A stretch of DNA of 53,660 nt, taken from contig CABYOB010000004.1 of the NCBI GenBank assembly GCA_902520385.1, forward strand, positions 1-53,660, in the 5' to 3' direction. This stretch comes from an uncultured Bacteroidota bacterium (lineage in GTDB: Bacteria; Bacteroidota; Bacteroidia; Flavobacteriales; TMED113). A program made the translations under genes and the position numbers. Within the stretch, counting starts at the first letter, position 1. Each line of letters begins with the position of its first letter. Positions 14,306 to 29,746 of this stretch are shown in pieces. Below the pieces are notes generated by a model. That model was given only the letters and a program-made list of their open reading frames with translations, was not told where the DNA came from and searched no databases.

Positions 14306-16048
14306 ATGTATAGAACAGTAAATAACGGTGAGTTAAGCAAAAAAAACATTGGACAACAAGTTACAATGTGTGGTTGGGTTCAAAAATCTAGGGATTTAGG
14401 AGGAATGACATTTGTTGATTTGAGAGATAGATATGGAATAACTCAACTTGTTTTTAATATGGAAACAAATTCAGAATTATGCGAAAAAGCAAGGAGTTTA
14501 GGAAGAGAGTTTGTAATACAAATTGTGGGCAAAGTAATTGAACGTGCTTCAATTAATAAAGAAATGAAAACGGGAGAAATTGAAGTCGCTGTAGATCAAA
14601 TCATTATTCTAAATAAATCTAAAATACCACCATTTACTATTGAAGATCAAACGGATGGTGGTGACGATCTAAGAATGAAGTATAGATATTTAGATCTTCG
14701 TAGAGAACCTGTTAAGAACAATCTAATCCTTAGATCAGAGGTTGCATTTCATACTAGGACATATTTAAAAAATCAAGGTTTTTTAGAAATTGAAACACCA
14801 GTGCTAATTAAATCAACTCCAGAAGGGGCTAGAGATTTTGTTGTTCCATCTAGATTAAATCAAGGAGAGTTTTACGCACTCCCTCAATCTCCACAAACCT
14901 TTAAACAATTGTTAATGGTTTCTGGCTATGATAAATATTATCAAATTGTAAAGTGTTTTAGAGATGAAGATTTTAGAGCTGATCGTCAGCCTGAATTTAC
15001 ACAAATAGACTGTGAGATGGCATTTGTAGAAACAGAGGATATTTTAAAGACATTTGAGGGTTTGATGAAAAATATTTTGTTTGAAACAAAAGGAATTAAA
15101 ATTGATGAAGTGCCTAGGATGACTTACGCTGATGCCATTAGAGACTATGGAACTGATAAGCCCGACTTAAGGTTTGAGATGAAAATAATGAATTTAGAAT
15201 CAGTTTGTAAGGGTTCAGGATTCAACGTTTTTGATAGTGCTGAAACGGTACTTGGAGTTGTTGTTCCAGGAGGCGCAGAGTTTACCAGAAAGCAAATAGA
15301 TAGTTTAACAGACTGGGTTAAGAGACCACAAATTGGGGCAACTGGAATGATTTACTGCAAGTTTAATGAGGGTGGTGAAAACAAATCATCAGTGGATAAA
15401 TTTTTTGACGTAAGTGCATTAAAGTCATGGAAAGAAATTAGTGGGGCAAGTGATGGAGATATGCTTTTAATTTTAGCAGGAAAAAAATCAGTTACTATAA
15501 ATGCTATTGGAAATTTAAGATTAGAAGTTGCTGAAAGATTAAGTCTTAGGGACCCTAATTTATATAAACCAGTTTGGGTAACAGATTTTCCTTTATTTGA
15601 ATTTGACGAGGAAACAAAAACATATCATGCAATGCATCACCCTTTCACTTCACCTAATATTGATGATATGAAGCTATTAGAAACAGACCCAAAAATGGTT
15701 CGAGCAAATGCGTATGACATGGCGTTAAATGGCACAGAAATAGGAGGAGGTTCAATTAGAATTCATAATAAAGAATTACAACAAAAAGTGTTTAATTTAC
15801 TCGGATTTAGTGATGAAGAGGCACATGAAAAATTTGGATTTCTTATGGAAGCTTTTGAATATGGTGCTCCCCCGCATGGTGGTATAGCATTTGGCCTTGA
15901 TCGAATTTGTGCGGTGATTGCAGGATCAGATAGTATTAGAGATTTTATTGCATTTCCAAAAAATAATTCAGGTAGAGATGTAATGTTAGACGCACCTTCT
16001 AAAATAGATAACGATCAACTTAATGAGTTAGGATTACAAACAAAATAA
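14306..16048 (+). CDS. aspS: Aspartyl-tRNA synthetase
   Basis: [46 protein letters not shown]. Confidence 0.98.
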
Positions 16049-16056
16049 ATTTTATT

Positions 16057-16752
16057 ATGATTCCATTTGGGACACTATTTAATGTTGCTACTGTATTAAT
16101 TGGAAGCACATTAGGTCTTATATTTAAAAAAATGATCAACCCTGAATTAAACAAAAAAGTTTTTTTTGTGATGGGTTTGTTTACATTGGTTTTAGGATTT
16201 AGTATGTCCATTAAAAGTTCAGATTTCATATTAATGTTCTTGTCTCTTGTTTTTGGAACAATGTATGGTGAGTATTGTAATTTAGATAAATTGATTACAA
16301 ATTTTACTGAAAAAATTAAAATCAAAATTAATGTAAAGGACACAAAATTTACTGATGGTATAGTTACTGCGTTTTTACTTTTTTGTATTGGGTCAATGAC
16401 CATTGTAGGAGCTATTGATGAGGGTTTGGGAAAAACACCAGACATATTATTTACTAAGTCGGTGATGGATGGAATTAGTTCAATAATTTTAGCATCAGCA
16501 TTTGGTGTTGGGGTTTTGTTTTCTATTTTCCCAATGCTAATTTTCCAAGGAGGAATAACCATTTTAGTTTTTTATTATAAAGATTTTTTACCAATAGAGT
16601 TGATAGATCATATAAGTGCAGTTGGAGGTGTGCTAATAATTGCAATTGGATTAAAAATATTAGGCTATAAAAAAATCAACCCAACCAATATGCTTCCCTC
16701 ACTTTTATTTTTAGTGTTGTTGTTTTTTTTAAAAAAAGAATTAGGTATTTAA
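16057..16752 (+). CDS. DUF554-family membrane protein
   Basis: GTLFN..., FLLFCIGSMTIVGAI, KSVMDG, FQGGIT, NMLPSL pattern; multiple TM helices. Confidence 0.8.
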   Translation: MIPFGTLFNVATVLIGSTLGLIFKKMINPELNKKVFFVMGLFTLVLGFSMSIKSSDFILMFLSLVFGTMYGEYCNLDKLITNFTEKIKIKINVKDTKFTDGIVTAFLLFCIGSMTIVGAIDEGLGKTPDILFTKSVMDGISSIILASAFGVGVLFSIFPMLIFQGGITILVFYYKDFLPIELIDHISAVGGVLIIAIGLKILGYKKINPTNMLPSLLFLVLLFFLKKELGI

Positions 16753-16761
16753 TTTATTTTT

Positions 16762-16769
16762 TAATTTTG
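16762..16769 (+). promoter_or_regulatory. Bacteroidota housekeeping promoter -7 element
   Basis: TAATTTTG (TAnnTTTG), 5 nt upstream of the structured RNA start. Confidence 0.6.
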
Positions 16770-16774
16770 TAATA

Positions 16775-16893
16775 GCATCAAGAGTTACTTGAAAGTATGC
16801 CAACCGACCCTAACCAGGGCGGCGGTGGAAAAAAGATGTGAGGTGATCATCCTAAAACAATATGGTAATCAAATCACTATTTTTAATTGATGC
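16775..16893 (+). promoter_or_regulatory. SAM-I/IV-variant-like riboswitch (aptamer ~16775-16870 plus alternative-pairing tail)
   Basis: P1 GCATC/GATGT. J1/2 AAGAG. P2 TACT-TGAA-AGTA. P3 core CCAACC...GG with CCCT-AACC-AGGG. P5 AGG...CCT. 3' AACAATATGGT can pair with loop ACCA (pseudoknot). Downstream TTGATGC can sequester the 5' GCATCAA. Family call is by eye. Confidence 0.65.
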
Positions 16894-16944
16894 AATAATG
16901 TTAAATGTTAAATTATTGTATTATGAAAAATATACGTAAAAAAA

Positions 16945-17265
16945 TCAGTCTTCATTTAGTAAGTTTTTTAAACCCAATCTTTTCAAAATTTTTTTTTCTT
17001 GTTTCCAAAAAAAATCAAATTGACCAAACAAAAAAGCAACTACTAAAAGAGTGAATTGATAGGCAATAAAAATAATTAAAATTCTAAGTGGGTAGTATAA
17101 ATACCAATTAAGTGAATCATTGTTTATTCCAAATAAGTTTAGTAGAGGTCTTGATATTAATAAAGAACTAAAACCGCTAATTGCAAAAACAATGTTTATT
17201 ATAAAAAACTGAAAATTGGAAGTAATCTCCCATTTAGACTTAAGCTTTTGAAACAACTTTAACAT
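16945..17265 (-). CDS. Small membrane protein, DUF6787-like
   Basis: KLKSKWEITSNFQ...VFAISG...YQFTLL...GQFDFFWKQEKKILKR pattern typical of a conserved Bacteroidota family. Confidence 0.7.
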   Translation of the reverse strand: MLKLFQKLKSKWEITSNFQFFIINIVFAISGFSSLLISRPLLNLFGINNDSLNWYLYYPLRILIIFIAYQFTLLVVAFLFGQFDFFWKQEKKILKRLGLKNLLNED

Positions 17266-17292
17266 ATAGTATAAATATAAAAATAAATAATT

Positions 17293-17649
17293 ATGAAATA
17301 TTCAAAAATTAAATCACCATTTATAAAAAAAAAATTAAAAAAAACTGTTTGGAAAAATCGAATTTATATTGATGATTTAATCCAATTACATAAATACATG
17401 ACTAAAGGAATTAATTCCTGGATTGCGGCAAGTCTTTTTTCTGAATTGAAATTTAAATATGAAGGCGAGTATTTAAAATTGATTGAAGAAGACACTAGGC
17501 TAAACCCAAATGAAAAAAGAATTATGATGTATCCAAAGCAAATACATGATTTAAAATTAAGAAAAAAGAAAATTATAAAATGGAAATTAGATGAATTTAA
17601 GCTTGAAATGTTATTAAAGAAAGATTGGATAAATTGTGGGGGGGGGTAA
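17293..17649 (+). CDS. Hypothetical basic protein (118 aa)
   Basis: ORF with AT-rich upstream region; no recognised motif; ends in a G9 tract. Confidence 0.55.
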   Translation: MKYSKIKSPFIKKKLKKTVWKNRIYIDDLIQLHKYMTKGINSWIAASLFSELKFKYEGEYLKLIEEDTRLNPNEKRIMMYPKQIHDLKLRKKKIIKWKLDEFKLEMLLKKDWINCGGG

Positions 17650-17791
17650 AATCATAATACAATGAAGGGATATTTATTAATTTTGAAATACGGTTATAGT
17701 TTTCTTCATTATTTTAAATATAGTTGTTTAATAAAATAGCTATAAAATAAAATTTAGTATATTATTTAAGAAATCATATTTATGATAATTA

Positions 17792-19231
17792 ATGAAAAAA
17801 TACTTTAATTTTGATTTAACAGAACAACAATTAAAGGTTTTTAATTCTTTAAAAATCTTTGTTCAAAACCACAGTGAAAAAGTATTTATTTTAAAAGGTT
17901 ATGCCGGCACAGGTAAAACAACCCTAATGTTTGGGTTAATAAAATATCTTCAAGAAATAAAAAAAAATTTCGATTTACTTTCATCAACTGGTAGGGCAGC
18001 CAAAATATTATCAGATTTAACAGGTCACCGAGCCTCCACTATTCATAGTAGAATATACACATTTAGTGATTTAAGTGATGATTTAGAGGATATACATAAG
18101 AAAAGAAAAAAAAACATCACAGATAATAAAAGTTTAAATTTATTATTTTCTCTATCACAAATAGATGCAGATCAGTCAAAAAAAAAAATTATATACATCA
18201 TTGATGAGTCATCTATGATATCTAATCAAAAAGATAAATCAATTTCTTTTGCTCAATTTGGGGACGGAGAGCTTTTAAATGATTTAATAAATTATGACCC
18301 AAACGGTAAATTTATATTTATAGGAGACCCTTGTCAATTACCCCCGATTAAACAAAAAGAATCCCCAGCTTTAAGCAAAGAATACATAGAGCAGAAATTT
18401 AATTTTAATGTAAAGGAACACATGCTTACCACAATAGTGAGACAGCAAGGGGTCAATAATGGAATAATACAAGCATCTTTAAATACTAGACGTCTTTTTT
18501 ATAATCCCCCTCAAATTAAATGGCCTAAGCTCCCATTAGGAAAGAATAATAATATTAAATTATTGAGTTCAGATTTTCAGTTAGCTAATGAGTATCTTAA
18601 AGAAATCAATGAAAATGGCACAGAAAATACTACTATTATTTGTCAATCAAATAGAGATTGTAAGGAGCTTAATAATTTTGTTAGGTCTAGATTATTTAAA
18701 GATACTTCCAGTATTCAAGTAAATGATTTATTATTAATAACTCAAAACAATCAAAAAGCAAATTTAGTTAATGGAGATTTGGTAAAAGTCTTAAGTATTG
18801 CCCCAAAAGAAAATAGATGTGGTCTTTCTTTTTGGGAGGTTCAGGCCCAAGAGTTATCATCTAAAAGGATAATAAATTCTTTATTAATTAATGATATTCC
18901 CTATTCAAATTCGACAAATATAAGTGAGGAAAAACATAAAGACCTAATGATTGATTATTATTTGAGAATGAAAGAAAAGGGAATTAAACAAGGAGATAGA
19001 TTATTTAAAGATAACATGTTGAAAGATGAATATTTAAATGCGATTAAATGTGTGTTTGGGTATGCTTTAACATGCCATAAGTCTCAAGGTGGAGAATGGG
19101 ATAAGGTTTTTTTATATATTAAACAAAAAATTTATGGAATTCCTAGACCAGGATTATTTCAGTGGTGGTACACAGCAATTACTAGAGCTAGAAAAAAATT
19201 ATTTATTGTAGATGATTGGTTTATTTCGTAA
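17792..19231 (+). CDS. RecD-like SF1B DNA helicase (AAA_30 / UvrD_C_2 type)
   Basis: GYAGTGKT, STGRAA, TIHS, IIDESSM, GDPCQLPP, VRQ, YALTCHKSQGGEW, YTAITRAR. Confidence 0.9.
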   Translation: MKKYFNFDLTEQQLKVFNSLKIFVQNHSEKVFILKGYAGTGKTTLMFGLIKYLQEIKKNFDLLSSTGRAAKILSDLTGHRASTIHSRIYTFSDLSDDLEDIHKKRKKNITDNKSLNLLFSLSQIDADQSKKKIIYIIDESSMISNQKDKSISFAQFGDGELLNDLINYDPNGKFIFIGDPCQLPPIKQKESPALSKEYIEQKFNFNVKEHMLTTIVRQQGVNNGIIQASLNTRRLFYNPPQIKWPKLPLGKNNNIKLLSSDFQLANEYLKEINENGTENTTIICQSNRDCKELNNFVRSRLFKDTSSIQVNDLLLITQNNQKANLVNGDLVKVLSIAPKENRCGLSFWEVQAQELSSKRIINSLLINDIPYSNSTNISEEKHKDLMIDYYLRMKEKGIKQGDRLFKDNMLKDEYLNAIKCVFGYALTCHKSQGGEWDKVFLYIKQKIYGIPRPGLFQWWYTAITRARKKLFIVDDWFIS

Positions 19232-21926
19232 TATTCTTGATAAATATATATGTGTTTTTCACCATTTCATACTCATCAATTTCTGGCACAGGCTTTTCAG
19301 AAAGCAAGATTCTCGAATAATGTTCAATTTTGTTTTTTAACGCCTCTATAGATTTAAATGAATCTTCAGGGAGTATTCCCTGTTTTTTTTCGTTTTTTAT
19401 AATTTCATTAAACCCATTTTCAGATTTCAATTTTTCTTTATAATTTTTTAATGTTTGTATTTCATCTTTTTTGAGTTTTCTATGATTTTCTAAATCTTGC
19501 CCATCTTTCTTAACATACAGAATTGGCATGATTAATTCGGTATTTTCTAAATCATATACTTTTTCAATACTATAATAAAATTCAATATCCTCATTGAAAC
19601 ACCCAAATTCTAGAACTTTTTCTAAATATTTTAATGCATTTTCCAAATCCTTATCAAGAAAATAAACAACAGCGCGATTATATGTTAGCATAGGAAATAA
19701 GTTAGTATACTCTTTAGATGACGGATCCCATGACTCCATTTCTTTAATTAGAAAGTCAAAAATTTCCTTGGCTAACTCTTTTTTGCGTCTTAGACAAATA
19801 AAACCGAGGCTGTTCAATGGATTGTCTAAAATGTTATTTCCTTTATTTCTATCAAATATTTTTTTTAAATCTGTAAAATATGCTTCAGGAAGTGTAAAAT
19901 CAAATCCGCGTTCTTTTCTTGTGTAATGGGTAATTAATTTCAAAACGAATTGCTCTATATACTGTTCTTCAAAAAATTTAACTCCAGAGTTTAAGCTTTG
20001 GTTAATTAATTCATCCGTTGTACAAATATTGGATTTAGGAATTTTATAAATTTTAAATGAAAAATTCGGATTTCTTTTATTAAGTGAAGACAAATATTTT
20101 TCTGTTCTTAAAGGATACGAATTATCAAAGTCTATTCCCACTCCTTGAAATGCTTTTTTTAATTCCGGATTTTTCAAATTAATATCATAGATATATAAAT
20201 CCGGATGGTTATCTATAGATTTATGTGAAATTTGACAGGTATATGAAACAAACTGCCATCTAGTTTTCTCTGCAAGTGTCTGAAAATCAATAGTTCCATT
20301 TTTCAGATTTTCAAAAAATTTAAAAAAATCAACAGGGACTTCTTCATCATCATAAAAGCCATCACCATTAAAAACCATGTTTTTGTTTTCTTCTGTAAAT
20401 CTGAATGTAGAAGCGGCGAAATTACAGATTGGCCTATTCGTAATTTCCTTCCAAAGATTTTGAGCTTCTTCACCACTATCTAAATTATACTTAATATGAA
20501 AAGGAGCGTTATATTTTTCCATATATTTTAATCTCAATTCTGCTTGTTCTTTTTTATTTCCTGTATAAACAACTCTATTTGAAAGGTTTTCTTCTTTTTT
20601 TTGAACAGGTGATTCATATCCTATTTTATTTTCCAGGGCAACTGTATTTTCTACACCTACATAATACAGAATATTATTTTTTACTAAATCTGCAATAAAA
20701 TTAGAAAAGGTTATTTTGTCCCAGCTATTTTCATTCGTAAAAAATATTGAATACCATGAAAAAATTTTTCCAAGAGGCGTAAATGGGGAATTAATAATAA
20801 TAAATTGCAACCACTTTCTTTGGTTTTCATCAAAATGTAATATTTTTTCAACTCTTTCAGGATTATGACTAAGTCCATCTGCCACTTCATTTTCATCACT
20901 ACTTATTTGTTCATTTACTACTTTGTCTAGCATGTTTCCGGTAAGTCTCATTTTATAACCATTTTCAGCTCCCTTGTCATACATAATTCGCCCAAGTTTA
21001 ATAATAATATCAATGGAGCCACTTGAGTAGTCATAAATTTCTTGACATACAGATGGCCAATTTTTAAAACATTTTTTATAATCACTTTCTTTCCATTCCA
21101 CCATGTTTAATCTAGCTTCAAAAAATGTTTTCACATCATCTTTGTCATTAAAATAATTTAGATTATATGTTTTAAAATCCCTTCCGACTCCTCCAAAAAT
21201 TTCATGTATTTTATGGTTATCTTTAATCCTTGGCCCGGCAAAAACGAAACCAACGCTATTTTCTTGATCAAGTATAATTCCTCTAATTATTTCTATGATA
21301 TCCTGAGAGTTATAAATATACTCTGCCTCATCAACAAGAAACACAATTTTTTTATCAACATATTCTGAGAATTTTTTTAAGTCTCGATTTATCGTGTTTA
21401 TATTAGGATTACTTTTTTCACCTTTGTGAACATATGCATTAATAAACTCAAAATTTACCTTCACGGGATTTCCGTAATTAGGATTAAATTCCTCCTTTTT
21501 CTTACTATCATCAGAGCCCGTAATGTCTTTATGTATTATTCCTGTCTGCAGTATGTTTTTTGAATCACGAAAGGCTATTCTTTTTTCTCTATGAAGATTT
21601 TTTTCTTCTAACAATTCAGTTAGTAAATCGCAGTATAGTTCTTTGTAAAATTCCCATGCACTTCTAGTAGTGCTTTTTGTTAAAGTTATTTTAATTGAAA
21701 TAAACCCAAGATCTAAACCCCAGTTTTTAATAATATTTATGAAACTAGTTTTTCCAACACCCCGGTCTCCTAATATTAAAAAACCTTTATTCCACTTTGA
21801 TTCATTTTTATTTTTTCTCATATCCTGTTTTATAGACTCTATTTGAGATCTGTGGTTTACTCCGGATATTTGTTCTTCCTTGTTGCTTTGGCGCTCAAAT
21901 GGATTGGGTTTTTCAAAAAAGTGCAT
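19221..21926 (-). CDS. STAND-like P-loop ATPase (901 aa) with C-terminal TPR-like segment
   Basis: NPF N-terminus, Walker A GDRGVGKT (21747-21770), Walker B VFLVDEAE, FVFAG, IYDYSSG helical motif, C-terminal YNRAVVYF...ENALKYLEKVLE. Confidence 0.7.
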   Translation of the reverse strand: MHFFEKPNPFERQSNKEEQISGVNHRSQIESIKQDMRKNKNESKWNKGFLILGDRGVGKTSFINIIKNWGLDLGFISIKITLTKSTTRSAWEFYKELYCDLLTELLEEKNLHREKRIAFRDSKNILQTGIIHKDITGSDDSKKKEEFNPNYGNPVKVNFEFINAYVHKGEKSNPNINTINRDLKKFSEYVDKKIVFLVDEAEYIYNSQDIIEIIRGIILDQENSVGFVFAGPRIKDNHKIHEIFGGVGRDFKTYNLNYFNDKDDVKTFFEARLNMVEWKESDYKKCFKNWPSVCQEIYDYSSGSIDIIIKLGRIMYDKGAENGYKMRLTGNMLDKVVNEQISSDENEVADGLSHNPERVEKILHFDENQRKWLQFIIINSPFTPLGKIFSWYSIFFTNENSWDKITFSNFIADLVKNNILYYVGVENTVALENKIGYESPVQKKEENLSNRVVYTGNKKEQAELRLKYMEKYNAPFHIKYNLDSGEEAQNLWKEITNRPICNFAASTFRFTEENKNMVFNGDGFYDDEEVPVDFFKFFENLKNGTIDFQTLAEKTRWQFVSYTCQISHKSIDNHPDLYIYDINLKNPELKKAFQGVGIDFDNSYPLRTEKYLSSLNKRNPNFSFKIYKIPKSNICTTDELINQSLNSGVKFFEEQYIEQFVLKLITHYTRKERGFDFTLPEAYFTDLKKIFDRNKGNNILDNPLNSLGFICLRRKKELAKEIFDFLIKEMESWDPSSKEYTNLFPMLTYNRAVVYFLDKDLENALKYLEKVLEFGCFNEDIEFYYSIEKVYDLENTELIMPILYVKKDGQDLENHRKLKKDEIQTLKNYKEKLKSENGFNEIIKNEKKQGILPEDSFKSIEALKNKIEHYSRILLSEKPVPEIDEYEMVKNTYIFIKNITK

Positions 21927-21930
21927 AATT

Positions 21931-22686
21931 TTATTTAATTTTTTCCTTTATTTCGTTTAGGAATTGGTTATTATCTTGTTTCCAAAGATTTATGTCTAGT
22001 TGATTTCCTGTAAAAGTTATATTGTTGTAATCTTTAATTAATTTTAAGAATTTATTTGCTTTATCACCTATTGTTTTCCGAAGAATACTTTCTTCGTTAT
22101 TGATTAAATTTATAAATACTGAAATATTTTTTGAAAGTCGAATATTATCTATTACAGTTTTAATTATTCGCAATTCGGCATGTTCAATTTCAATTTGTCG
22201 ATTTAGATAGCTTTCTAAATTGATTATATCGTTATTTATGGTGTTAAAATCTCTTTTTAAAATTTTCAATTCTTTATCAGAAATTATTCTTGAGTGAGCC
22301 ATATTATTTCTAATTGGAGTTATGTTTTCAATTAAAGAGATTAAATTTTTAATTTCACGTAAGTTTATCCCTAAACAATTTTCATTTATTTTATATATTC
22401 TCCCACCTGGACAACAATCTTTAATTAAGTTCTTGAGTTCCCCAAAAGAGAGCATATATATAAGATTAATTTTTTTTGCAGTTTCCCAGTCATTTTTTTT
22501 ACTCCATTTTTCTTTTTCTTCAATATCTTTAATGAGTGTATTTGAAAAAACACCCTGACCACTTTTATCCAAATCCCAATCTTTTCCTAGAATTTTATCA
22601 AATTTCTTAATAAGAAACTCTCTTAGACCTATTTCAAGCTTCAAAACATATTCATATGCTTGGATATTTTTTTTAAAAACACTCAT
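21931..22686 (-). CDS. Swt1-like HEPN-domain protein (putative RNase)
   Basis: LEIGLREFL, LSFGELKNLI and RxxxxH motif RNNMAH (22294-22311). Confidence 0.8.
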   Translation of the reverse strand: MSVFKKNIQAYEYVLKLEIGLREFLIKKFDKILGKDWDLDKSGQGVFSNTLIKDIEEKEKWSKKNDWETAKKINLIYMLSFGELKNLIKDCCPGGRIYKINENCLGINLREIKNLISLIENITPIRNNMAHSRIISDKELKILKRDFNTINNDIINLESYLNRQIEIEHAELRIIKTVIDNIRLSKNISVFINLINNEESILRKTIGDKANKFLKLIKDYNNITFTGNQLDINLWKQDNNQFLNEIKEKIK

Positions 22687-23138
22687 TATTTACATAAATA
22701 ATTAATTATTTCCTTCCAACTTGGAAACGCACTACTGCCAAATTGTATCCATTCCCCTTTAAATTCTTTAGCGCCATTCCATGGGTTATCATCAATTAAA
22801 TAATCTCCAAGTTGTAAGTGTTTATGATGTGATAGGATTAATTTTTTTCTAATATATGCCCCTAAGTTTTTCTCCACCCAAAGTCTTTTATGTGTCCATG
22901 AATCATAGTTATCCCATGATGGAGAGCTTAGAATATATACATCAAATTTTTTTATTAAAATCTCAAGGCTTTCTTTAGCGCCATTGATTAAGTCTAAATT
23001 TTTAAAAATATTAGGTAATAAATCAGGCCTGCCAGGGTATAATTCTTTTTGAGGGTGTTTTTTTGCAGCTTTATTAAAATCACACAAAACCCCATCCATA
23101 TCTACATAAATAATTTTTTTTCGAACGCTGGCTTTCAT
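22686..23138 (-). CDS. HAD-family 5'(3')-deoxyribonucleotidase (NT5C-like)
   Basis: YVDMDGVLCDF, ILSSP, KRLWVEKNLG, K..GDYLIDD, F.GEWIQF. Confidence 0.88.
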   Translation of the reverse strand: MKASVRKKIIYVDMDGVLCDFNKAAKKHPQKELYPGRPDLLPNIFKNLDLINGAKESLEILIKKFDVYILSSPSWDNYDSWTHKRLWVEKNLGAYIRKKLILSHHKHLQLGDYLIDDNPWNGAKEFKGEWIQFGSSAFPSWKEIINYLCK

Positions 23139-24877
23139 TATCTAACCCTAATTTTTATTAAAGATGAATTAATTGTGTTACTTAATGATCTAAATACAGG
23201 TTTTACTTCAATAGAGTCTCCCACATTAACTAAAGTTGCTAACTGACTCATTTCAATTTCTTTAGAGTAAGTTGTTGTTGAGCTTGATGAATCCTTATGT
23301 TTCCAGTTTTCTTCTGTCCAGATTGGTTGTTGGCTTGTTCGATTTGGAAACCCAGTTTTTTCTATTGTAATATCTCCTGAGCTTTTAGCATTTAGAGGCC
23401 ACGCAACTTGAGTTACTCTATGTCCTTCATTAAAATTAGCACAAAATTCTAATTCTATTTTTAAGTACTTTTTTGTTGGGTTACCTTTATTAATTACTGT
23501 AGCACTTTTTGTCAAACAAACAATATTGTCTGGTTTCATCATTAGCCAATTATTAATTGAGTTTTTACATTTAGTATTATTAACAGGGCAAGGGGCAATT
23601 AAAAATAATTGCACAAGTACTTTTCGTATCAACGATAAACTAGAATCATTATGAAATGCTCCAAATTGACCATCCCATTTTATAGGATCAACATACCCAA
23701 TCTCTTGCTCATATAAACTTGAACTAATCGGAAAAGTGTATCCATGATTCATTAGTCTTTTTGTAGCGCATTCAAATACATCTAACATTAATCGAAATAC
23801 TCCTTTTTGTTGTAGAGCCCCTAATCTTTGCCTAGCCTGATCCCAATAATGAGCTGGGTAAACAGAAATTAATGCATTTATATAATTTTCTAAAGTATCT
23901 ATAACATCTTGATTGTTATAATTGTAATCAAGAGTTCCGTTTTCAAACCATTTACAAAGGAAATCATTTGTTAATCTAAATACATCTACAATATCCATTC
24001 TAATTGTGATATCTCGCTCAATCATTGTTACCCTGCCCTCAGGTTGAACATTGGCCCATGGAGAGCTTCCAAGATTTAAACCAGAAGCAATTTCATAAGA
24101 CTTTAATCTAATTCTTCCTTTTCGTGTATTTTGATTATATGTTGGTTTAAGTCGGAATTTAGCTAATAAAAACTCTTTATGTAGTTTACTTAACTGAACT
24201 GCAGCAGAAGTAATTTCGGTAAATATTTTGGCAACTTCAGTCATGGTAAAGCCATCATTTTTACATAACCAAGTTGAAAAAACTTTTTCTTTATGATTGT
24301 TATTTTGGTCAGGAGAATAAGACATTCCTCTTATCCTGTGCTGACCATCAACAATAACAGCTGGTCGGTCACAATAATTACAATTTGGGCAACAATCGGC
24401 ATACCATCCTAATTTATCAGATCCATAAGTTTGTTCAACTGACCAATTACAATTTGGACAGTTTTGAAAACACCAATCAGCGGGATTTAAAGATCCTTCA
24501 AAAGTATCGGCCCTTTCTGAATCAGTTACATTTAAATCTTTAAAAAAAAGCACACTATTGTTTGGGCTAATAGGTCGTCCACTTCCTTTCCACCAGCTAT
24601 TAATTTCAGGGACACGGTCTATATTTAATTTTCTTTGCCAAGGAATATCTTGTTGCAAAAATAAATCAGCCATTTCTTTATTATTTCTATTTCCTATTTC
24701 AGGTGTTCTTGAAATTCTGTCTAATTCTTGAACAGTTAAAGAAATACAACGAATTTTACGCCCGTGCTGATCTATAAACATACCCCACAAATTTATTTCA
24801 TGTTGGTCAGGTTGTTCATATAAATAAATAGGCTCACTAGATGAATTAACAGGAGCTCGCCACTTAATTTTTGTCAT
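23138..24877 (-). CDS. DGQHR-domain (DndB/ParB-like) protein with Zn-ribbon insertion
   Basis: WQRKL, PNN, IVDGQHR (DGQHR at 24335-24349), AKIFTEIT; two CPNC motifs before DGQHR. Confidence 0.8.
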   Translation of the reverse strand: MTKIKWRAPVNSSSEPIYLYEQPDQHEINLWGMFIDQHGRKIRCISLTVQELDRISRTPEIGNRNNKEMADLFLQQDIPWQRKLNIDRVPEINSWWKGSGRPISPNNSVLFFKDLNVTDSERADTFEGSLNPADWCFQNCPNCNWSVEQTYGSDKLGWYADCCPNCNYCDRPAVIVDGQHRIRGMSYSPDQNNNHKEKVFSTWLCKNDGFTMTEVAKIFTEITSAAVQLSKLHKEFLLAKFRLKPTYNQNTRKGRIRLKSYEIASGLNLGSSPWANVQPEGRVTMIERDITIRMDIVDVFRLTNDFLCKWFENGTLDYNYNNQDVIDTLENYINALISVYPAHYWDQARQRLGALQQKGVFRLMLDVFECATKRLMNHGYTFPISSSLYEQEIGYVDPIKWDGQFGAFHNDSSLSLIRKVLVQLFLIAPCPVNNTKCKNSINNWLMMKPDNIVCLTKSATVINKGNPTKKYLKIELEFCANFNEGHRVTQVAWPLNAKSSGDITIEKTGFPNRTSQQPIWTEENWKHKDSSSSTTTYSKEIEMSQLATLVNVGDSIEVKPVFRSLSNTINSSLIKIRVR

Positions 24878-24881
24878 GACA

Positions 24882-25355
24882 TTAAATTAAAAAACATCTT
24901 AAAGCAAGTCCAATTCCTATTGAACCACCTTTAAATGATTGGTTATGTATTTTACAAATTAACAAAGAATTTTCATGCTCATCAAAAAATTTTGACAAAC
25001 TATCGGTGTACGATGATTTTGGTAAGATATGATCTTTTTCTAAACTTCCGATGAAATTACATTCTGGAAATTGACAGGTTCCATGGTTTTTGCCAATTAC
25101 TTTAGCCTTTTTAGATTCATCAAAAAGATTTTTTTTTTGTAAAAAATTTGTATGTTGAGTTATATAAAGATCACAAATATTATGAGCGGATATGTTTTGA
25201 ATATTGAACTTTTTTACAGATTCGAATAATTCATTTCTCATAGATATGTAATCTGAGCTTGTTCTATTGCTCAAAACAGATGCATTATATTTACTTAGCA
25301 CCTTGATGCATTCATAATCTAGTTTGAAACCGTTGACTAATGACTTGAACTCCAT
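24882..25355 (-). CDS. HNH endonuclease with Zn-binding Cys/His
   Basis: CQFPEC ... EKDHILPKS ... NSLLICKIHNQSFKG. Confidence 0.78.
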   Translation of the reverse strand: MEFKSLVNGFKLDYECIKVLSKYNASVLSNRTSSDYISMRNELFESVKKFNIQNISAHNICDLYITQHTNFLQKKNLFDESKKAKVIGKNHGTCQFPECNFIGSLEKDHILPKSSYTDSLSKFFDEHENSLLICKIHNQSFKGGSIGIGLALRCFLI

Positions 25356-26483
25356 TTATATTAGCGTTCCCCTCCTTTGTTGTTCAGCCTCAATAGCTTC
25401 AAAAAGAGCTTTAAAATTTCCTTTACCGAATGATTGAGCTCCTTTTCTTTGAATAATTTCAAAAAATAAGGTTGGTCGATCTTCTACTGGTTTTGTAAAA
25501 ATTTGAAGTAAGTATCCTTCTTCATCCCTATCCACTAAAATGCTTAGGTCTCTTAGTTTAATTATATCTTCATCAATTTCTCCAACTCGATCTAGTACAG
25601 TATCGTAATATGTTTTAGGGACATGTAAAAACTCTACTCCTCTAGCCTGCATTTTCTTCACAGTATCAATAATATTATCTGTTGCAATGGCAATATGTTG
25701 GCACCCGGGACCATTGTAGAATTCTAGGTATTCTTCAATTTGAGATTTTTTTGCACCTTCAGCGGGTTCATTTATAGGGAATTTAATCCTACCATTTCCA
25801 TTAGTCATAACCTTACTCATCAAAGCAGTGTATTGAGTAGATATGTCTTTGTCATCAAATGTAATTAAGTTTGCAAAACCCATTACATCGCGATAAAAAT
25901 CTTCCCAAACATTCATTTCATTCCAACCCACATTACCAACCATGTGGTCTATATACTTTAATCCTATTGGTTCTGGATTGTATGAAGATTCCCATTTTTC
26001 GAATCCAGGGAGAAAAATACCATTGTAATTTTTTCTTTCTACAAAAACATGAACAGTGTCTCCATAAGTATGAATTCCTGATTGAATTACTTCACCATGC
26101 TCATCTTCAATTTTATTTGGATCCATATATGATTTTGCGCCCCTTTTGGTAGTCTCCTCCCAAGCTTTTGTGGCATCATCAACCCAAAGTGCAATAACTT
26201 TAACACCATCGCCATGTTTAGTAATATGTTCTTCAATTACAGTATTGCCAGACATTGGTGTTGTTAGCACAATTCTTATTTTATCTTGAACTAAAACATA
26301 TGATGTTTTAGTTGAATCTCCAGTTTCCAGCCCTGAGTATGCTAATGATTGAAAACCAAATGCAGTTTTATAAAAGTGAGCTGCTTGTTTAGCATTACCC
26401 ACATAAAACTCCACGTAGTCTGTGCCCTTTAAGGGAAGAAAATCTTGTGCTTTAGGAAATATTTTTTTTAAATCTTCGCTCAT
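25356..26483 (-). CDS. hppD: 4-hydroxyphenylpyruvate dioxygenase
   Basis: HGDGVK, DHMVGN, INEPA, KSQIEEYL, QHIA, EIIQRKG..FGKGNFKALF; likely start is the ATG at 26483, overlapping the hmgA stop (TAATG). Confidence 0.96.
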   Translation of the reverse strand: MSEDLKKIFPKAQDFLPLKGTDYVEFYVGNAKQAAHFYKTAFGFQSLAYSGLETGDSTKTSYVLVQDKIRIVLTTPMSGNTVIEEHITKHGDGVKVIALWVDDATKAWEETTKRGAKSYMDPNKIEDEHGEVIQSGIHTYGDTVHVFVERKNYNGIFLPGFEKWESSYNPEPIGLKYIDHMVGNVGWNEMNVWEDFYRDVMGFANLITFDDKDISTQYTALMSKVMTNGNGRIKFPINEPAEGAKKSQIEEYLEFYNGPGCQHIAIATDNIIDTVKKMQARGVEFLHVPKTYYDTVLDRVGEIDEDIIKLRDLSILVDRDEEGYLLQIFTKPVEDRPTLFFEIIQRKGAQSFGKGNFKALFEAIEAEQQRRGTLI

Positions 26484-27640
26484 TATTCTATCCAAGATTT
26501 ATAATATTCTCCATCATCTAAATTCATGGCAGCTTTAGTCAATTTCAGTGGTCTGAAAGTATCTACCATTACAGCTAATTCTTGCGTTTCTTTTTGACCT
26601 ATAGATCTTTCCATGGCTCCTGGATGAGGTCCGTGAGGAATACCCGCGGGGTGTAAACTTATGTATCCTTTTTCAACATGATTTCTACTCATAAAATCTC
26701 CGTCAACATAATATAAAACCTCATCAGAATCTATATTACTATGATTATATGGAGCTGGTATTGAATCAGGGTGATAATCATATAATCTTGGGCAGAAAGA
26801 GCAAACGACAAAAGCGTCTGTTTCAAAAGTTTGATGCACAGGTGGTGGTTGATGTATTCTTCCAGTGATAGGTTCAAAGTCATGAATTGAAAAAGCATAC
26901 GGATAGTTATAACCATCCCAGCCCACAACATCAAAAGGATGAGAGCCATATATAACGTGATGCATCATGCCTTCTTTTTTGATCATCATTAAGAAGTCTC
27001 CTTTTTCATCTTTTGTAATTAAATCTTTTGGCCTTCTTATATCTCTTTCACAATATGGGGAATGTTCTAATAATTGACCAAAGTGATTTCTATACCTTTT
27101 AGGAGTATACATAGGATGAAAAGATTCAACAATAAATAATCTATTATCTTCATCATTAAACTCTATTTGATAAATAATTCCCCTTGGAATTAAAAGGTAA
27201 TCACCATATGAAAAATCTAAATTACCAAGCATTGTTTTTAATGTTCCAGAACCCTTATGAATAAAAATTAATTCATCTGCGTCAGTGTTTTTATAAAAGC
27301 TTTCAGTCATTGATTCACTGGGCGCAGCTAGAGAAATATGGCAATCATTATTTACAAGAATAGGTGTGCGACTTTCTAAATAATTTTTTCCCTTCGGTAA
27401 ATCAAAACCCTTTAATAGTCTCGATTTTATATTATTTTCAACTGCAATTTCAGGTTGCAGATTTTCTTTTTTTAGAACTTCTTTTACTTGTGTTGGTCTT
27501 TGTGTATGATATACAAGTGAAGACATTCCAACAAATCCAATTGTTCCAAATAACTCTTCGTAACGGTGTTTACCAGATTCGGATTTAAACACAGTGTGTC
27601 TTTTATTTGGTATGTCACCTAGTTTGTGATAAAAAGGCAT
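26483..27640 (-). CDS. hmgA: Homogentisate 1,2-dioxygenase
   Basis: HPFDVVGWDG, HQPPPVH, PYNHSNIDSDE, HPAGIPHGP; adjacent to hppD. Confidence 0.93.
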   Translation of the reverse strand: MPFYHKLGDIPNKRHTVFKSESGKHRYEELFGTIGFVGMSSLVYHTQRPTQVKEVLKKENLQPEIAVENNIKSRLLKGFDLPKGKNYLESRTPILVNNDCHISLAAPSESMTESFYKNTDADELIFIHKGSGTLKTMLGNLDFSYGDYLLIPRGIIYQIEFNDEDNRLFIVESFHPMYTPKRYRNHFGQLLEHSPYCERDIRRPKDLITKDEKGDFLMMIKKEGMMHHVIYGSHPFDVVGWDGYNYPYAFSIHDFEPITGRIHQPPPVHQTFETDAFVVCSFCPRLYDYHPDSIPAPYNHSNIDSDEVLYYVDGDFMSRNHVEKGYISLHPAGIPHGPHPGAMERSIGQKETQELAVMVDTFRPLKLTKAAMNLDDGEYYKSWIE

Positions 27641-27669
27641 AGTTTAATTATTATTTGTAAATATAATTA

Positions 27670-28731
27670 TTATAGAGAGTTTATGTTTCTTTCAGCAATA
27701 TTTTCTTGCGGGCGAATACTTTTTTTAAATGAAGTTAGTGATGGTCTTTTTCTAGCTTTTCTAATTTTTCTCTGCTCATCTTTAGGTAGCTTGGACATTT
27801 TCCGACAATTATTATTGCAACAACCTTTATATTTTTCTTCACATTTTTTACATTGTATAAAAAGTAGATTACAGTCTACATAATTACAATTTGTGTAATC
27901 ATCACATGGTCCACCACATTGATCACACGTGCCAATTACATCATTTGAAATTCTTTCACCTAGCCGATCATCAAATACAAAATTTTTACCAATAAATTTA
28001 TTTTCTAAATTATTTTCTTTGATTTGCTTAGCATAATCTATGATTCCTCCATGTAGTTGATTTACATCTTTAAATCCATGATGTTTTAAATATGAACTTG
28101 TTTTTTCACATCTAATTCCTCCTGTACAATAAAGTAAAATTTTTTCTTCTTTTTTATCTTTTAATTTTTCTTTGATTAGTGGGAGTTCTTCTCTGAATGT
28201 GTCAACATCAGGCTTTAAGGCTCCTTTAAAATGCCCAATTCTACTTTCATAATGATTTCTTACATCGACTACTGTGGCTCCATTATTAATACACTCATTC
28301 CATTCTTTAGCTGAGAGGTGATTACCCACATTAGTTACATCGTACTCATTATCATTGAGCCCATCTGCCACAATTTGTTTTTTTATTTTAATTGTTAATT
28401 TTAAAAAAGATGACAGATTTTCTTCTAACGCAATCTTAAATGGAATGTTTTCAAGGCCCTTAGTTGAGTGAACAGACTTAACAAATTTATCCCAATGGGT
28501 TTGAGGACAAGATAATTGAGCGTTTATTCCTTCTTTAGCAATATAAATTCTTCCTTTTATTTTTAATTCATCCCATTTAATGAACAGTTCTTTTCTCATT
28601 GCCAATGGGTCATCAATTATAACATATTTGTAAAAAGACAGAGTAGTTCTTTTAAAATTTTCCTGAGCCAATTGTTTTTCTAAATCTTTTCTTCCAAACT
28701 TATTATGTAAAATTTTATTTTTTTCCTTCAT
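27670..28731 (-). CDS. trhO: Rhodanese-related tRNA hydroxylase (YceA/TrhO family)
   Basis: SFYKY, EGINAQ, DVRNHYE, YCTGGIRCEK, FVFDDR, Cys-rich C-terminus. Confidence 0.88.
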   Translation of the reverse strand: MKEKNKILHNKFGRKDLEKQLAQENFKRTTLSFYKYVIIDDPLAMRKELFIKWDELKIKGRIYIAKEGINAQLSCPQTHWDKFVKSVHSTKGLENIPFKIALEENLSSFLKLTIKIKKQIVADGLNDNEYDVTNVGNHLSAKEWNECINNGATVVDVRNHYESRIGHFKGALKPDVDTFREELPLIKEKLKDKKEEKILLYCTGGIRCEKTSSYLKHHGFKDVNQLHGGIIDYAKQIKENNLENKFIGKNFVFDDRLGERISNDVIGTCDQCGGPCDDYTNCNYVDCNLLFIQCKKCEEKYKGCCNNNCRKMSKLPKDEQRKIRKARKRPSLTSFKKSIRPQENIAERNINSL

Positions 28732-28738
28732 CTTAAAT

Positions 28739-28766
28739 CAAAGATAATTAATAGATTATATATTTG
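28739..28766. promoter_or_regulatory. Back-to-back Bacteroidota -7 promoter elements
   Basis: TATCTTTG on the minus strand (28739-28746) and TATATTTG on the plus strand (28759-28766) in a divergent intergenic gap. Confidence 0.55.
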
Positions 28767-28783
28767 TTACTATATTCATATTT

Positions 28784-29746
28784 ATGTCGTCACAAAAAAA
28801 AATTTTGGTAATAGGGTCAAATGGTCAAATAGGAACTGTTTTAACTAATAAGTTGGGTGAAAAATATGGTTATGAGAACGTTGTGGGCAGTGATTTAAGA
28901 TGCCCTGAAAATCAACCTAAATTTATTTTTGAAGAATGTAGTGTTTTAGATAAGGATCAACTGGGGCTAATAATAAAAAAATATAACATAACAGATGTTT
29001 ATTTGTTGGCTGCATATTTATCTGCAAAAGGTGAAAAAAATGTTAATAAAGCTTGGGATTTAAATATAAATGGATTGCGTCATATTTTAAATTTTGCGAA
29101 AGATAAAAAAATTGAAAAAATATTTTGGCCTAGCTCAATAGCGGTCTTTGGCCCCACTACTCCCAAAAATAATGTTGATCAATATGCTAGAACAGAGCCT
29201 ACTACAATTTATGGTGTTAGTAAATTAGCAGGTGAAAGTTTGTGTAACTATTATTATAATAAGTTTGCAGTTGATGTACGTAGTATAAGGTACCCTGGTT
29301 TAATTGGCTGGGAATCAATGCCCGGAGGAGGAACAACAGATTATGCAGTAGATATATTTCACGCAGCCATTAAAAATGAAGAGTATTTATGTTTTTTATC
29401 AGAAGACAGAAAGCTTCCTATGATGTATATGAATGATGCTATTAAAGCCACAATTGGCATAATGGATGCGCCCTCAGAATTTATAAAAATAAGAACCTCT
29501 TACAATTTATCTTCTTTAAATTTCAGTCCTAAACAAATTGAAGAGGAAATAAAAAAACACATAAGAAATTTTAAAGTATCATATAATCCTGATTTTAGAG
29601 ATCAATTAGCAAAAGACTGGCCACAATCAATCAATGATAATCATGCAAGAAATGATTGGGGATGGGAGCCAAATTTCAATTTACCGCAAATGGTTAATGA
29701 TATTATCTTAAATTTGAAGAATAGATATAAGAAAGAAAAAATTTAA
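28784..29746 (+). CDS. NAD-dependent epimerase/dehydratase family, likely L-threonine 3-dehydrogenase (SDR type)
   Basis: GSNGQIG, PSSIAVFG, YGVSK, PGGGTTDYAV, LPMMYM. Confidence 0.85.
   Translation: MSSQKKILVIGSNGQIGTVLTNKLGEKYGYENVVGSDLRCPENQPKFIFEECSVLDKDQLGLIIKKYNITDVYLLAAYLSAKGEKNVNKAWDLNINGLRHILNFAKDKKIEKIFWPSSIAVFGPTTPKNNVDQYARTEPTTIYGVSKLAGESLCNYYYNKFAVDVRSIRYPGLIGWESMPGGGTTDYAVDIFHAAIKNEEYLCFLSEDRKLPMMYMNDAIKATIGIMDAPSEFIKIRTSYNLSSLNFSPKQIEEEIKKHIRNFKVSYNPDFRDQLAKDWPQSINDNHARNDWGWEPNFNLPQMVNDIILNLKNRYKKEKI

Follow-up and report, generated by a model that had tools for sequence, protein, structure and literature searches.

The DNA analysed here, hereafter the window, is a stretch of 53,660 nucleotides from an uncultured bacterium of the phylum Bacteroidota (Flavobacteriales, lineage TMED113; contig CABYOB010000004.1 of assembly GCA_902520385.1, positions 1 to 53,660 of the forward strand). 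On its minus strand, at 23138..24877, lies an open reading frame of 579 amino acids whose product is a divergent DGQHR/ParB-fold protein with a cysteine-rich insert. Directly upstream, across a gap of four bases, a second minus-strand open reading frame (24882..25355) encodes a protein of 157 amino acids with the hallmarks of an HNH (beta-beta-alpha-Me) nuclease. The HNH gene and the zinc-ribbon DGQHR gene make up a rare, conserved two-gene cassette. An earlier description of this DNA, made from its letters alone (the sequence-only reading), did not include the HNH gene; with it, what looked like an odd, orphan DGQHR protein is better read as one half of a nuclease cassette of two genes.

The larger protein carries, in order, Q81-R82 (24632..24637), P105-N106, W135-CFQN-C140-PN-C143, a spacer of 18 residues, C162-C163-PN-C166-NY-C169, RPAVIV-D177GQHR181-IRG (the pentapeptide, residues 177–181, at 24335..24349) and F219-TEIT223 (24209..24223), all on the minus strand. 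The QR, PN, DGQHR and FTEIT elements are thus as the sequence-only reading had them. Their conservation was assessed in an alignment of 36 full-length family members sharing 20–52% identity with the window protein (alignment A2), and in a wider alignment (A4) that includes DndB-like proteins together with three relatives, P0014, P0053 and P0056, that have no ribbon. In A2 the QR pair, all five residues of DGQHR and E221 are present in every member and F219 in 35 of the 36; the QR, DGQHR and F motifs are common to the DndB-like proteins and are invariant in A4. Position 223, the asparagine of the canonical FxxxN motif (defined, as are QR and DGQHR, in PMC4619093), is threonine in 28 members, serine in two and asparagine in six, so that the departure from the usual F..IN motif pointed out earlier holds for 30 of the 36. 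By analogy with DGQQR in SspE and DpdB and with GxxRxxA in ParB (PMC10164549), DGQHR is presumed to be the motif that binds the phosphates of a nucleoside triphosphate (NTP).

The cysteine-rich segment (residues 135–170, 24368..24475, minus strand; W-x4-C140-x2-C143 ... D161-x-C163-x2-C166) lies between the QR/PN motifs and DGQHR. Homologues bearing it were found, and four of its cysteines occupy strongly conserved columns in A2: C140 and C163 are present in 36 of 36 members, C166 in 35 and C143 in 33, the remaining three reading CPxGH and so offering a histidine. The other three cysteines of the window protein are kept in only 7, 10 and 10 members. The CPNC-coding 12-mers (24460..24449 and 24391..24380) agree at 11 of 12 bases, a likeness that is trivial, as identical residues share their codons in a genome of only 30% guanine plus cytosine (GC) content. 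Internal duplication of a CPNC unit was ruled out, since the residues between the cysteines vary among homologues. The "double CPNC" that had been singled out earlier is therefore a peculiarity of this member; what the family conserves is the CxxC ... CxxC ligand set.

None of the DndB-like or DpdB-like relatives that were compared has the segment. Among six DndB-like proteins of Bacteroidota, the 70 residues before DGQHR contain no cysteine in five and two cysteines in one. In A4 a segment of some 35–45 residues is gapped in the DndB-like proteins and in the three ribbon-less relatives, and QR, N106, DGQHR and F219 remain aligned on either side of it. Judged by these alignments, the cysteine segment is a true insert relative to other DGQHR proteins and is conserved within its own family, as the sequence-only reading had proposed; it is not common in characterised DGQHR families. 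With two CxxC-type knuckles, four conserved ligands and short strands in the predicted structure (at residues 137, 139, 159–162 and 169), the insert has the make-up of a zinc ribbon, and we infer that it binds zinc. A second group of DGQHR proteins (P0058, P0068, P0073, P0080, P0081 and P0082; about 390–660 amino acids), with a different N-terminus, carries a similar half-ribbon, WFDxCxxCxWxG[RK]PG-IIDGQHR.

An AlphaFold2 model built from A2 has a mean predicted local distance difference test score (pLDDT) of 92.1 and a predicted template modelling score of 0.87; pLDDT is 95–98 over residues 131–170, which span the insert. The model falls into three parts. The first, an alpha/beta domain of ParB/sulfiredoxin (Srx) fold and NTPase type, extends to about residue 230 and holds the ribbon (24188..24877). 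The second, residues ~231–446 (23540..24187), is entirely helical. The third, residues 447–579 (23141..23539; all three on the minus strand), is a seven-strand beta-sandwich of the FN3/Ig-like kind. Among viral protein models (BFVD), Foldseek aligned the prediction over 360–480 columns, with E-values from 4e-7 to 1e-2, to proteins named as DndB, as ParB-like nuclease and as GmrSD N-terminal domain (DUF262); the alignments to the DndB- and DUF262-named proteins span the helical domain. By analogy, this middle domain is probably the equivalent of the DNA-binding "ParBDB" domain described in PMC12065111. Matches of the whole 579-residue model to the PDB (such as Brr2 Sec63 and Integrator) were disregarded, as TMq did not exceed 0.16 and the matches were driven by the helical and Ig-like parts. 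A sequence search of the PDB with the A1 profile and with the HNH protein gave rows at chance level only. The sequence-only reading had also taken the C-terminal sandwich for an additional domain: it is indeed present in the model, although it may not be specific to the clade, because the ribbon-less P0014, P0053 and P0056 (530–684 amino acids) appear to align through the same region in A4.

The HNH protein comprises an N-terminal four-helix domain (residues 1–75) and an HNH core (residues ~90–145). Across 12 of 12 orthologues C94, C99, D108, H109, P112, N129, C134, H137, N138, K142 and G149 are invariant, which amounts to a D-H-N-N type pattern together with a Cys3His structural site (C94, C99, C134 and H137). 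The canonical HNH catalytic pattern is D/E-H ... N ... H/N with flanking cysteine and histidine zinc ligands. Catalytic patterns of this kind are given in Table 2 of PMC4619093, and the D-H-N-N pattern agrees with that listed for GmrD (PMC4619093, PMC12707154). Profile matches are sparse: PF01844 recognises one of the 12 partners (1.4e-4) and HNH_5 likewise one (2.2e-3), and a database homologue, P0111, carries a precomputed PF01844 match.

How regularly the two genes occur together was determined by comparing eight window proteins, by tblastn, with 25 foreign loci (L001–L025) and the window copy (L026). In 13 loci the gene immediately upstream of the DGQHR gene encodes a homologue of the small HNH protein. 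The pairing follows the ribbon: an upstream open reading frame with the HNH motif is present in 13 of the 14 foreign loci that have at least four cysteines before DGQHR (the fourteenth, L009, ends 77 nucleotides upstream), and in none of the 11 loci with three cysteines or fewer. Counting the window, the ribbon clade has the HNH partner in all 14 loci that could be tested. The gaps between the two genes measure 3–40 nucleotides, and none of 102 retrieved proteins scanned for the motifs is an HNH–DGQHR fusion. Distances among the HNH proteins mirror those among the DGQHR proteins (Mantel r = 0.86 over 11 loci, a value reached in none of 5,000 permutations); as the loci are kin, this correlation reflects co-inheritance of the unit and not many independent events. 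At one locus (L013, 1353–2272) the DGQHR gene is in two overlapping, out-of-frame pieces (1353–1643 and 1598–2272), a frameshift that reflects either an assembly error or a decaying copy; the upstream HNH gene is intact.

Placement of the DGQHR protein among known families was sought with profile models. TIGR03187 (DGQHR) matches the window protein at E = 2.6e-8, its 33.9 bits falling under the cut-off of 58.85, and TIGR04172 (dnd-associated DGQHR) gives E = 0.016 and 14.3 bits against a cut-off of 450. No match to the window protein was returned by TIGR03233 (the DndB equivalog), by any Pfam model, PF14072 included, or, at E ≤ 0.1, by NF041060 (the NCBIfam DpdB model); PADLOC gave no significant match, its sole row being AbiEi at E = 0.014. 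Neither protein, and neither family, has a Pfam match to DUF262 or DUF1524. At the level of the family there is more signal: PF14072 (DndB) matches five of the 36 members (best 9e-8), PADLOC DpdB matches 11 (best 6e-15), PADLOC DndB matches one, and NF041060 matches P0028 best, at 1.6e-8 and 33.8 bits against a cut-off of 300. Because of these family-level matches to PF14072, the PADLOC DpdB and DndB models and the NCBIfam DpdB model, the clade is best described, on sequence, as a divergent offshoot nearest to DpdB. The window protein itself falls outside DndB, DpdB and GmrSD, since at least one tested defining feature of each is lacking.

Members of the family are very scarce in present-day databases. 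Fourteen proteins, the query among them, came out of a word-indexed search of 5.8 billion clusters. When 1.84 billion representatives were searched in full with HMMER, 91 matched at E ≤ 1e-3, of which 35 reached ≤ 1e-10 and 16 reached ≤ 1e-30. The nearest clusters in the ESM Atlas are unnamed (0.92) and "putative DGQHR" (0.91). Searches of 50,697 phage records, of 72,556 plasmids and of the IMG/VR viral contigs detected no relatives, and 185,579 species-representative genomes yielded only three distant, ribbon-less loci. Among sequencing runs, five DNA runs share only 5–11% of sampled words, and no RNA run is listed. Canonical DndB, sought with TIGR03233 in 301 genomes of the phylum, gave seven matches, all under the cut-off; six of these proteins served as the ribbon-less comparators in the cysteine counts above.

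Elsewhere, the cassette is located among restriction and defence genes. It is flanked by two WYL-WCX regulators, an AAA_15/21 ATPase and HsdM at L005; by AAA_23 and ResIII-type helicase genes at L006 and L008; by a PD-(D/E)XK nuclease at L011; by a Dam methylase, DUF6996/6997 and a MutH-like nuclease at L015; and by Dcm, PDDEXK_11, Dam, a BglII-like nuclease and a DEAD helicase of 1,752 amino acids at L017. At L014 it sits between housekeeping genes, with a NOV_C gene also present. The GC content of the hosts ranges from 0.31 to 0.52, and the flanks scanned contain no integrase, transposase, intron or intein context. The Dam neighbours at L015 and L017 suggest that the more distant members may be connected with adenine methylation. 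At L017 (1745–6141) PDDEXK_11, a Dam-type methylase gene ending two nucleotides before the HNH start, HNH, DGQHR and the BglII-like nuclease gene form a tight array on one strand.

The nearest ribbon-less relatives have different company. Proteins of the P0014 type (about 685–705 amino acids) are followed by DpdA-like genes at L020 (454–3761), L022 (538–3835) and L001 (1127–5859); in the last, from a metagenome-assembled genome of Thermoplasmatota, a ResIII helicase gene stands between the DGQHR and DpdA-like genes. The DpdA-like products match NF041059 (DpdA) at 1.1e-18 and 1.2e-17, under its cut-off. These pairs look like a compact, divergent DNA-modification module of the Dpd type in marine and archaeal contigs. 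When two of the DpdA-like proteins were used as tblastn queries, matches were confined to L001, L020 and L022; neither the window nor any of the 14 ribbon-bearing loci has one. Nor were dnd genes seen in the window or the related loci scanned, and the source assembly, which is 63% complete, has no match to TIGR03183 and TIGR03185 (the searches for DndC and DndD) or to NF041059. The earlier statement that the window contains no dnd or dpd genes therefore holds.

In the window the cassette forms one end of an island. Downstream on the minus strand follow a gene for an NT5C-like HAD 5'(3')-deoxyribonucleotidase (22686..23138; 150 amino acids; PF06941, E = 5.5e-15), whose start overlaps the DGQHR stop by one nucleotide and which is not part of the conserved cassette; a gene for a HEPN/Abi_2-like protein (21931..22686; 251 amino acids; PADLOC PDC-M34B at 5.5e-6, with Pfam Abi_2 at 1.2e-3 and HEPN_Swt1 at 0.067 both sub-cut-off); and a gene for a P-loop ATPase with a TPR region (19221..21926; 901 amino acids; AAA_22 at 6.7e-5 and TPR_1 at 3.8e-4, both sub-cut-off). 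On the plus strand lies a gene for an SF1 helicase of the RecD/PIF1 type (17792..19231; 479 amino acids; AAA_30 at 1.3e-18, UvrD_C_2 at 9.3e-13). The minus-strand genes are tightly packed, with overlaps of one nucleotide or gaps of four. The products of all four neighbours were among the tblastn queries, and none has a match in any of the 25 foreign loci. The ATPase-TPR, HEPN/Abi_2-like and NT5C-like genes may constitute a second system or may be helpers of the cassette.

Several known systems resemble the cassette in part. The closest likeness in organisation is to GmrS/GmrD, and to GmrSD, BrxU and SspE, restriction systems of type IV or that sense phosphorothioate, made of a DUF262 NTPase and a DUF1524 nuclease. 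In these a ParB fold with the QR/DGxxR/FxxxN set precedes a helical domain that binds DNA, and the whole works with a nuclease of the beta-beta-alpha-Me kind. GmrS and GmrD, too, may be encoded as separate proteins, and systems of the GmrSD type also occur in defence islands. The differences are numerous: the cassette proteins match no DUF262 or DUF1524 model, the motif reads DGQHR instead of DGQQR, and the nuclease, encoded first, is a classical Cys/His-zinc HNH protein with its own N-terminal helical domain, in which D-H-I-L-P stands, within the Cys/His-zinc HNH, where GmrSD has EHxxP. The ribbon insert in the ParB domain, the FN3-like end and the DpdB-like lineage set the larger protein apart as well. 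From DpdB, the ParB-like ATPase of the Dpd system for 7-deazaguanine modification of DNA, the cassette differs in that the partner is an HNH nuclease and not the DpdA transglycosylase, in the ribbon and FN3-like tail, in the replacement of the FxxxN asparagine by threonine or serine in 30 of 36 members, and in scores that are far under the equivalog cut-off. DndB (PF14072, TIGR03233) is the DGQHR regulator/ATPase of dnd phosphorothioation clusters, where it is encoded with dndCDE (and dndA/iscS). The DndB-like proteins, for their part, have about 410 amino acids and lack both the cysteine insert and the C-terminal ~170 residues, and the window gene has no dnd neighbours. Septu (PtuA/PtuB) also combines an NTPase with a small stand-alone HNH nuclease from adjacent genes, although PtuA is an ATPase of the ABC/AAA_15 type and not of ParB fold; PtuB models give weak matches to one HNH member each (E = 0.003 and 0.0095), which are not significant. 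Neither a DGQHR protein with a zinc ribbon nor an HNH–DGQHR pair was found described in the literature text consulted, which included PMC10853773, PMC12704722, PMC12065111, PMC12839542 and PMC12707154; the supplementary neighbourhood tables of PMC10853773, PMC12065111 and PMC12704722 could list the cassette.

We give about an even chance to the pair's being a restriction-type defence module of DpdB lineage, in which an NTP-gated ParB-fold sensor or loader works with a separate HNH effector in the manner of GmrS and GmrD. In such a module the DGQHR protein would bind NTP in a pocket formed by QR, DGQHR and FTE(I)T and would use its helical middle domain to contact DNA, probably acting as a dimer by analogy with DpdB. 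Binding or hydrolysis of the nucleotide would license the HNH protein, with D108-H109, N129 and N138 as catalytic residues and C94, C99, C134 and H137 as the structural zinc site, to cut target DNA. The ribbon, which lies in a hairpin just before the DGQHR strand, would be a clade-specific adaptation to the HNH partner, either a docking surface for the partner's N-terminal helical domain or an additional DNA contact beside the nucleotide pocket; its perfect co-occurrence with the HNH gene is the sole basis for this suggestion. Precedents exist for both halves of the scheme: the ATPase of DpdB, for which a dimer has been shown, is required for the action of DpdA on DNA (PMC10164549), and in GmrSD, BrxU and SspE the DUF1524 nuclease is gated by a DUF262 NTPase domain (PMC4619093, PMC12707154, PMC12065111).

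How such a module would tell its target from host DNA is suggested by what travels with it. Since the cassette has no conserved modification gene beside it, the choice of target would most simply depend on modification of the target, as in type IV systems, or be triggered by a cue from the invader. Our guess is the former, type IV-like choice; with Dam genes adjacent at L015 and L017, however, a mode in which modification protects the host is also conceivable. A more specific version of the idea holds that a DpdB-lineage NTPase was re-purposed from writing 7-deazaguanine with a transglycosylase to steering an HNH nuclease, with the ribbon as coupler, and that the pair is a type IV system against phage DNA carrying 7-deazaguanine or other hypermodified bases. 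The DpdB ancestry and marine host range suggest 7-deazaguanine-modified phage DNA as a possible target, and phages with DNA so modified exist among those of marine Flavobacteriia; we know of no described restriction enzyme specific for 7-deazaguanine-containing or otherwise hypermodified DNA. We nevertheless rate this version as very improbable.

If the cassette is a defence module of this kind, then its wider relevance lies in the ParB fold. ParB-fold NTPases are emerging as general switches that link nucleotide state to DNA transactions, as in the clamps formed by ParB, in DpdB (for DNA transglycosylation) and in DUF262 of GmrSD, BrxU, SspE and Menshen, and the cassette would add a DpdB-like protein that serves another enzyme, namely an HNH nuclease encoded on its own. 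The presence of the zinc ribbon coincides exactly with the change of partner, which offers a testable case of how a ParB-fold NTPase communicates with an enzyme acting in trans, a question raised by DpdA and DpdB, for which no stable complex has been seen (PMC10164549). The pair is also a compact, two-gene candidate for the catalogue of defence systems of uncultured marine bacteria. As the family is so rare, it will be of limited general importance if neither its mechanism nor its specificity proves to be new.

Other explanations of the same observations were considered. The HNH protein could be a general DNA-degrading toxin, held by the DGQHR protein and freed on an infection cue such as a change in the NTP pool or a phage protein, with death of the cell as outcome. 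In favour of such an abortive-infection or toxin–antitoxin pair is the strict co-inheritance of the two genes, with that for the small nuclease preceding that for a larger protein resembling a regulator; the operon-like array in the window, with its HEPN/Abi_2-like gene and large ATPase, points the same way, as does the lack of a conserved modification gene for self-protection. Likeness to known families of either sort is only sub-threshold, and a helical domain of DNA-binding type together with DpdB kinship favours action on DNA over sequestration, so that we regard this as unlikely; it overlaps largely with the restriction-type module, differing chiefly in the selectivity of the target. A role as an accessory of a DNA-modification system, that is, as an NTPase or regulator of the DndB/DpdB type that has its modification partners elsewhere in the genome and an HNH neighbour that is unrelated or a restriction arm, would account for the closeness of the sequence to DpdB models and for the DpdA-like partners of the ribbon-less relatives, and in an assembly that is 63% complete the partner genes could simply be missing. 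It is set against by the absence of DpdA-like genes from the window and the 14 ribbon-bearing loci, by the empty searches for DndC, DndD and DpdA in the source assembly, and by the HNH gene being the only conserved neighbour; in our estimation its probability is low.

Equally low is the probability we attach to a selfish mobile cassette, in which a homing-type HNH endonuclease and a ParB-like partner would serve their own spread or maintenance and not defence. HNH genes are classic homing endonucleases, the cassette is found in backgrounds spanning 31–52% GC, the L014 copy sits between housekeeping genes, and in the window there is zero spacing to the stop codon of the preceding gene, hppD. 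Mobility of this sort is difficult to reconcile with the lack of relatives in the phage, plasmid and IMG/VR collections, with flanks free of integrase, transposase, intron and intein context, and with neighbours that are typical defence and restriction-modification genes. The one-nucleotide overlap with the NT5C-like gene bears on a further idea, that the ParB-fold domain degrades NTPs or dNTPs and, with the nucleotidase, starves phage replication, leaving the HNH protein a secondary part; ParB/Srx proteins of conflict systems have been proposed as nucleotide degraders (PMC10853773). The NT5C-like gene adjoins the cassette in none of the loci L001–L025 and the HNH gene always does, and the large helical and FN3-like domains are left unexplained by a simple nucleotidase role; we think this hardly probable at all.

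The borders of the island were defined by comparison with 25 relatives, which match the window only at 16000–17635 and 25354–29000, save for one match of 233 nucleotides; because only the flanks are shared, the ~7.7 kb between them (17650–25355), with the SF1 helicase, ATPase-TPR, HEPN/Abi_2-like, NT5C-like, DGQHR and HNH genes, constitutes a strain-specific island. The helicase, used as a query, was not found in the five relatives searched with it. The single internal match (G017:C73:2210-2445 against 22714–22946 of the window, 75% identity) covers part of the NT5C-like gene and lies on a different contig, in a genome of the same order. At the upstream border the stop codon of hppD (TAA, 25358–25356) abuts the ATG of the HNH gene (25355–25353), and an AGGAGG starting 17 nucleotides upstream of that ATG lies inside hppD; the cassette may be expressed by read-through from the hppD–hgd operon. 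In a relative of the same family (G011; L031, G011:C39, 140–1495) a gene for a multi-pass membrane protein of 451 amino acids begins six nucleotides after hppD. The window lacks the membrane-protein gene at the corresponding place, so that the island seems to be a replacement and not a simple insertion.

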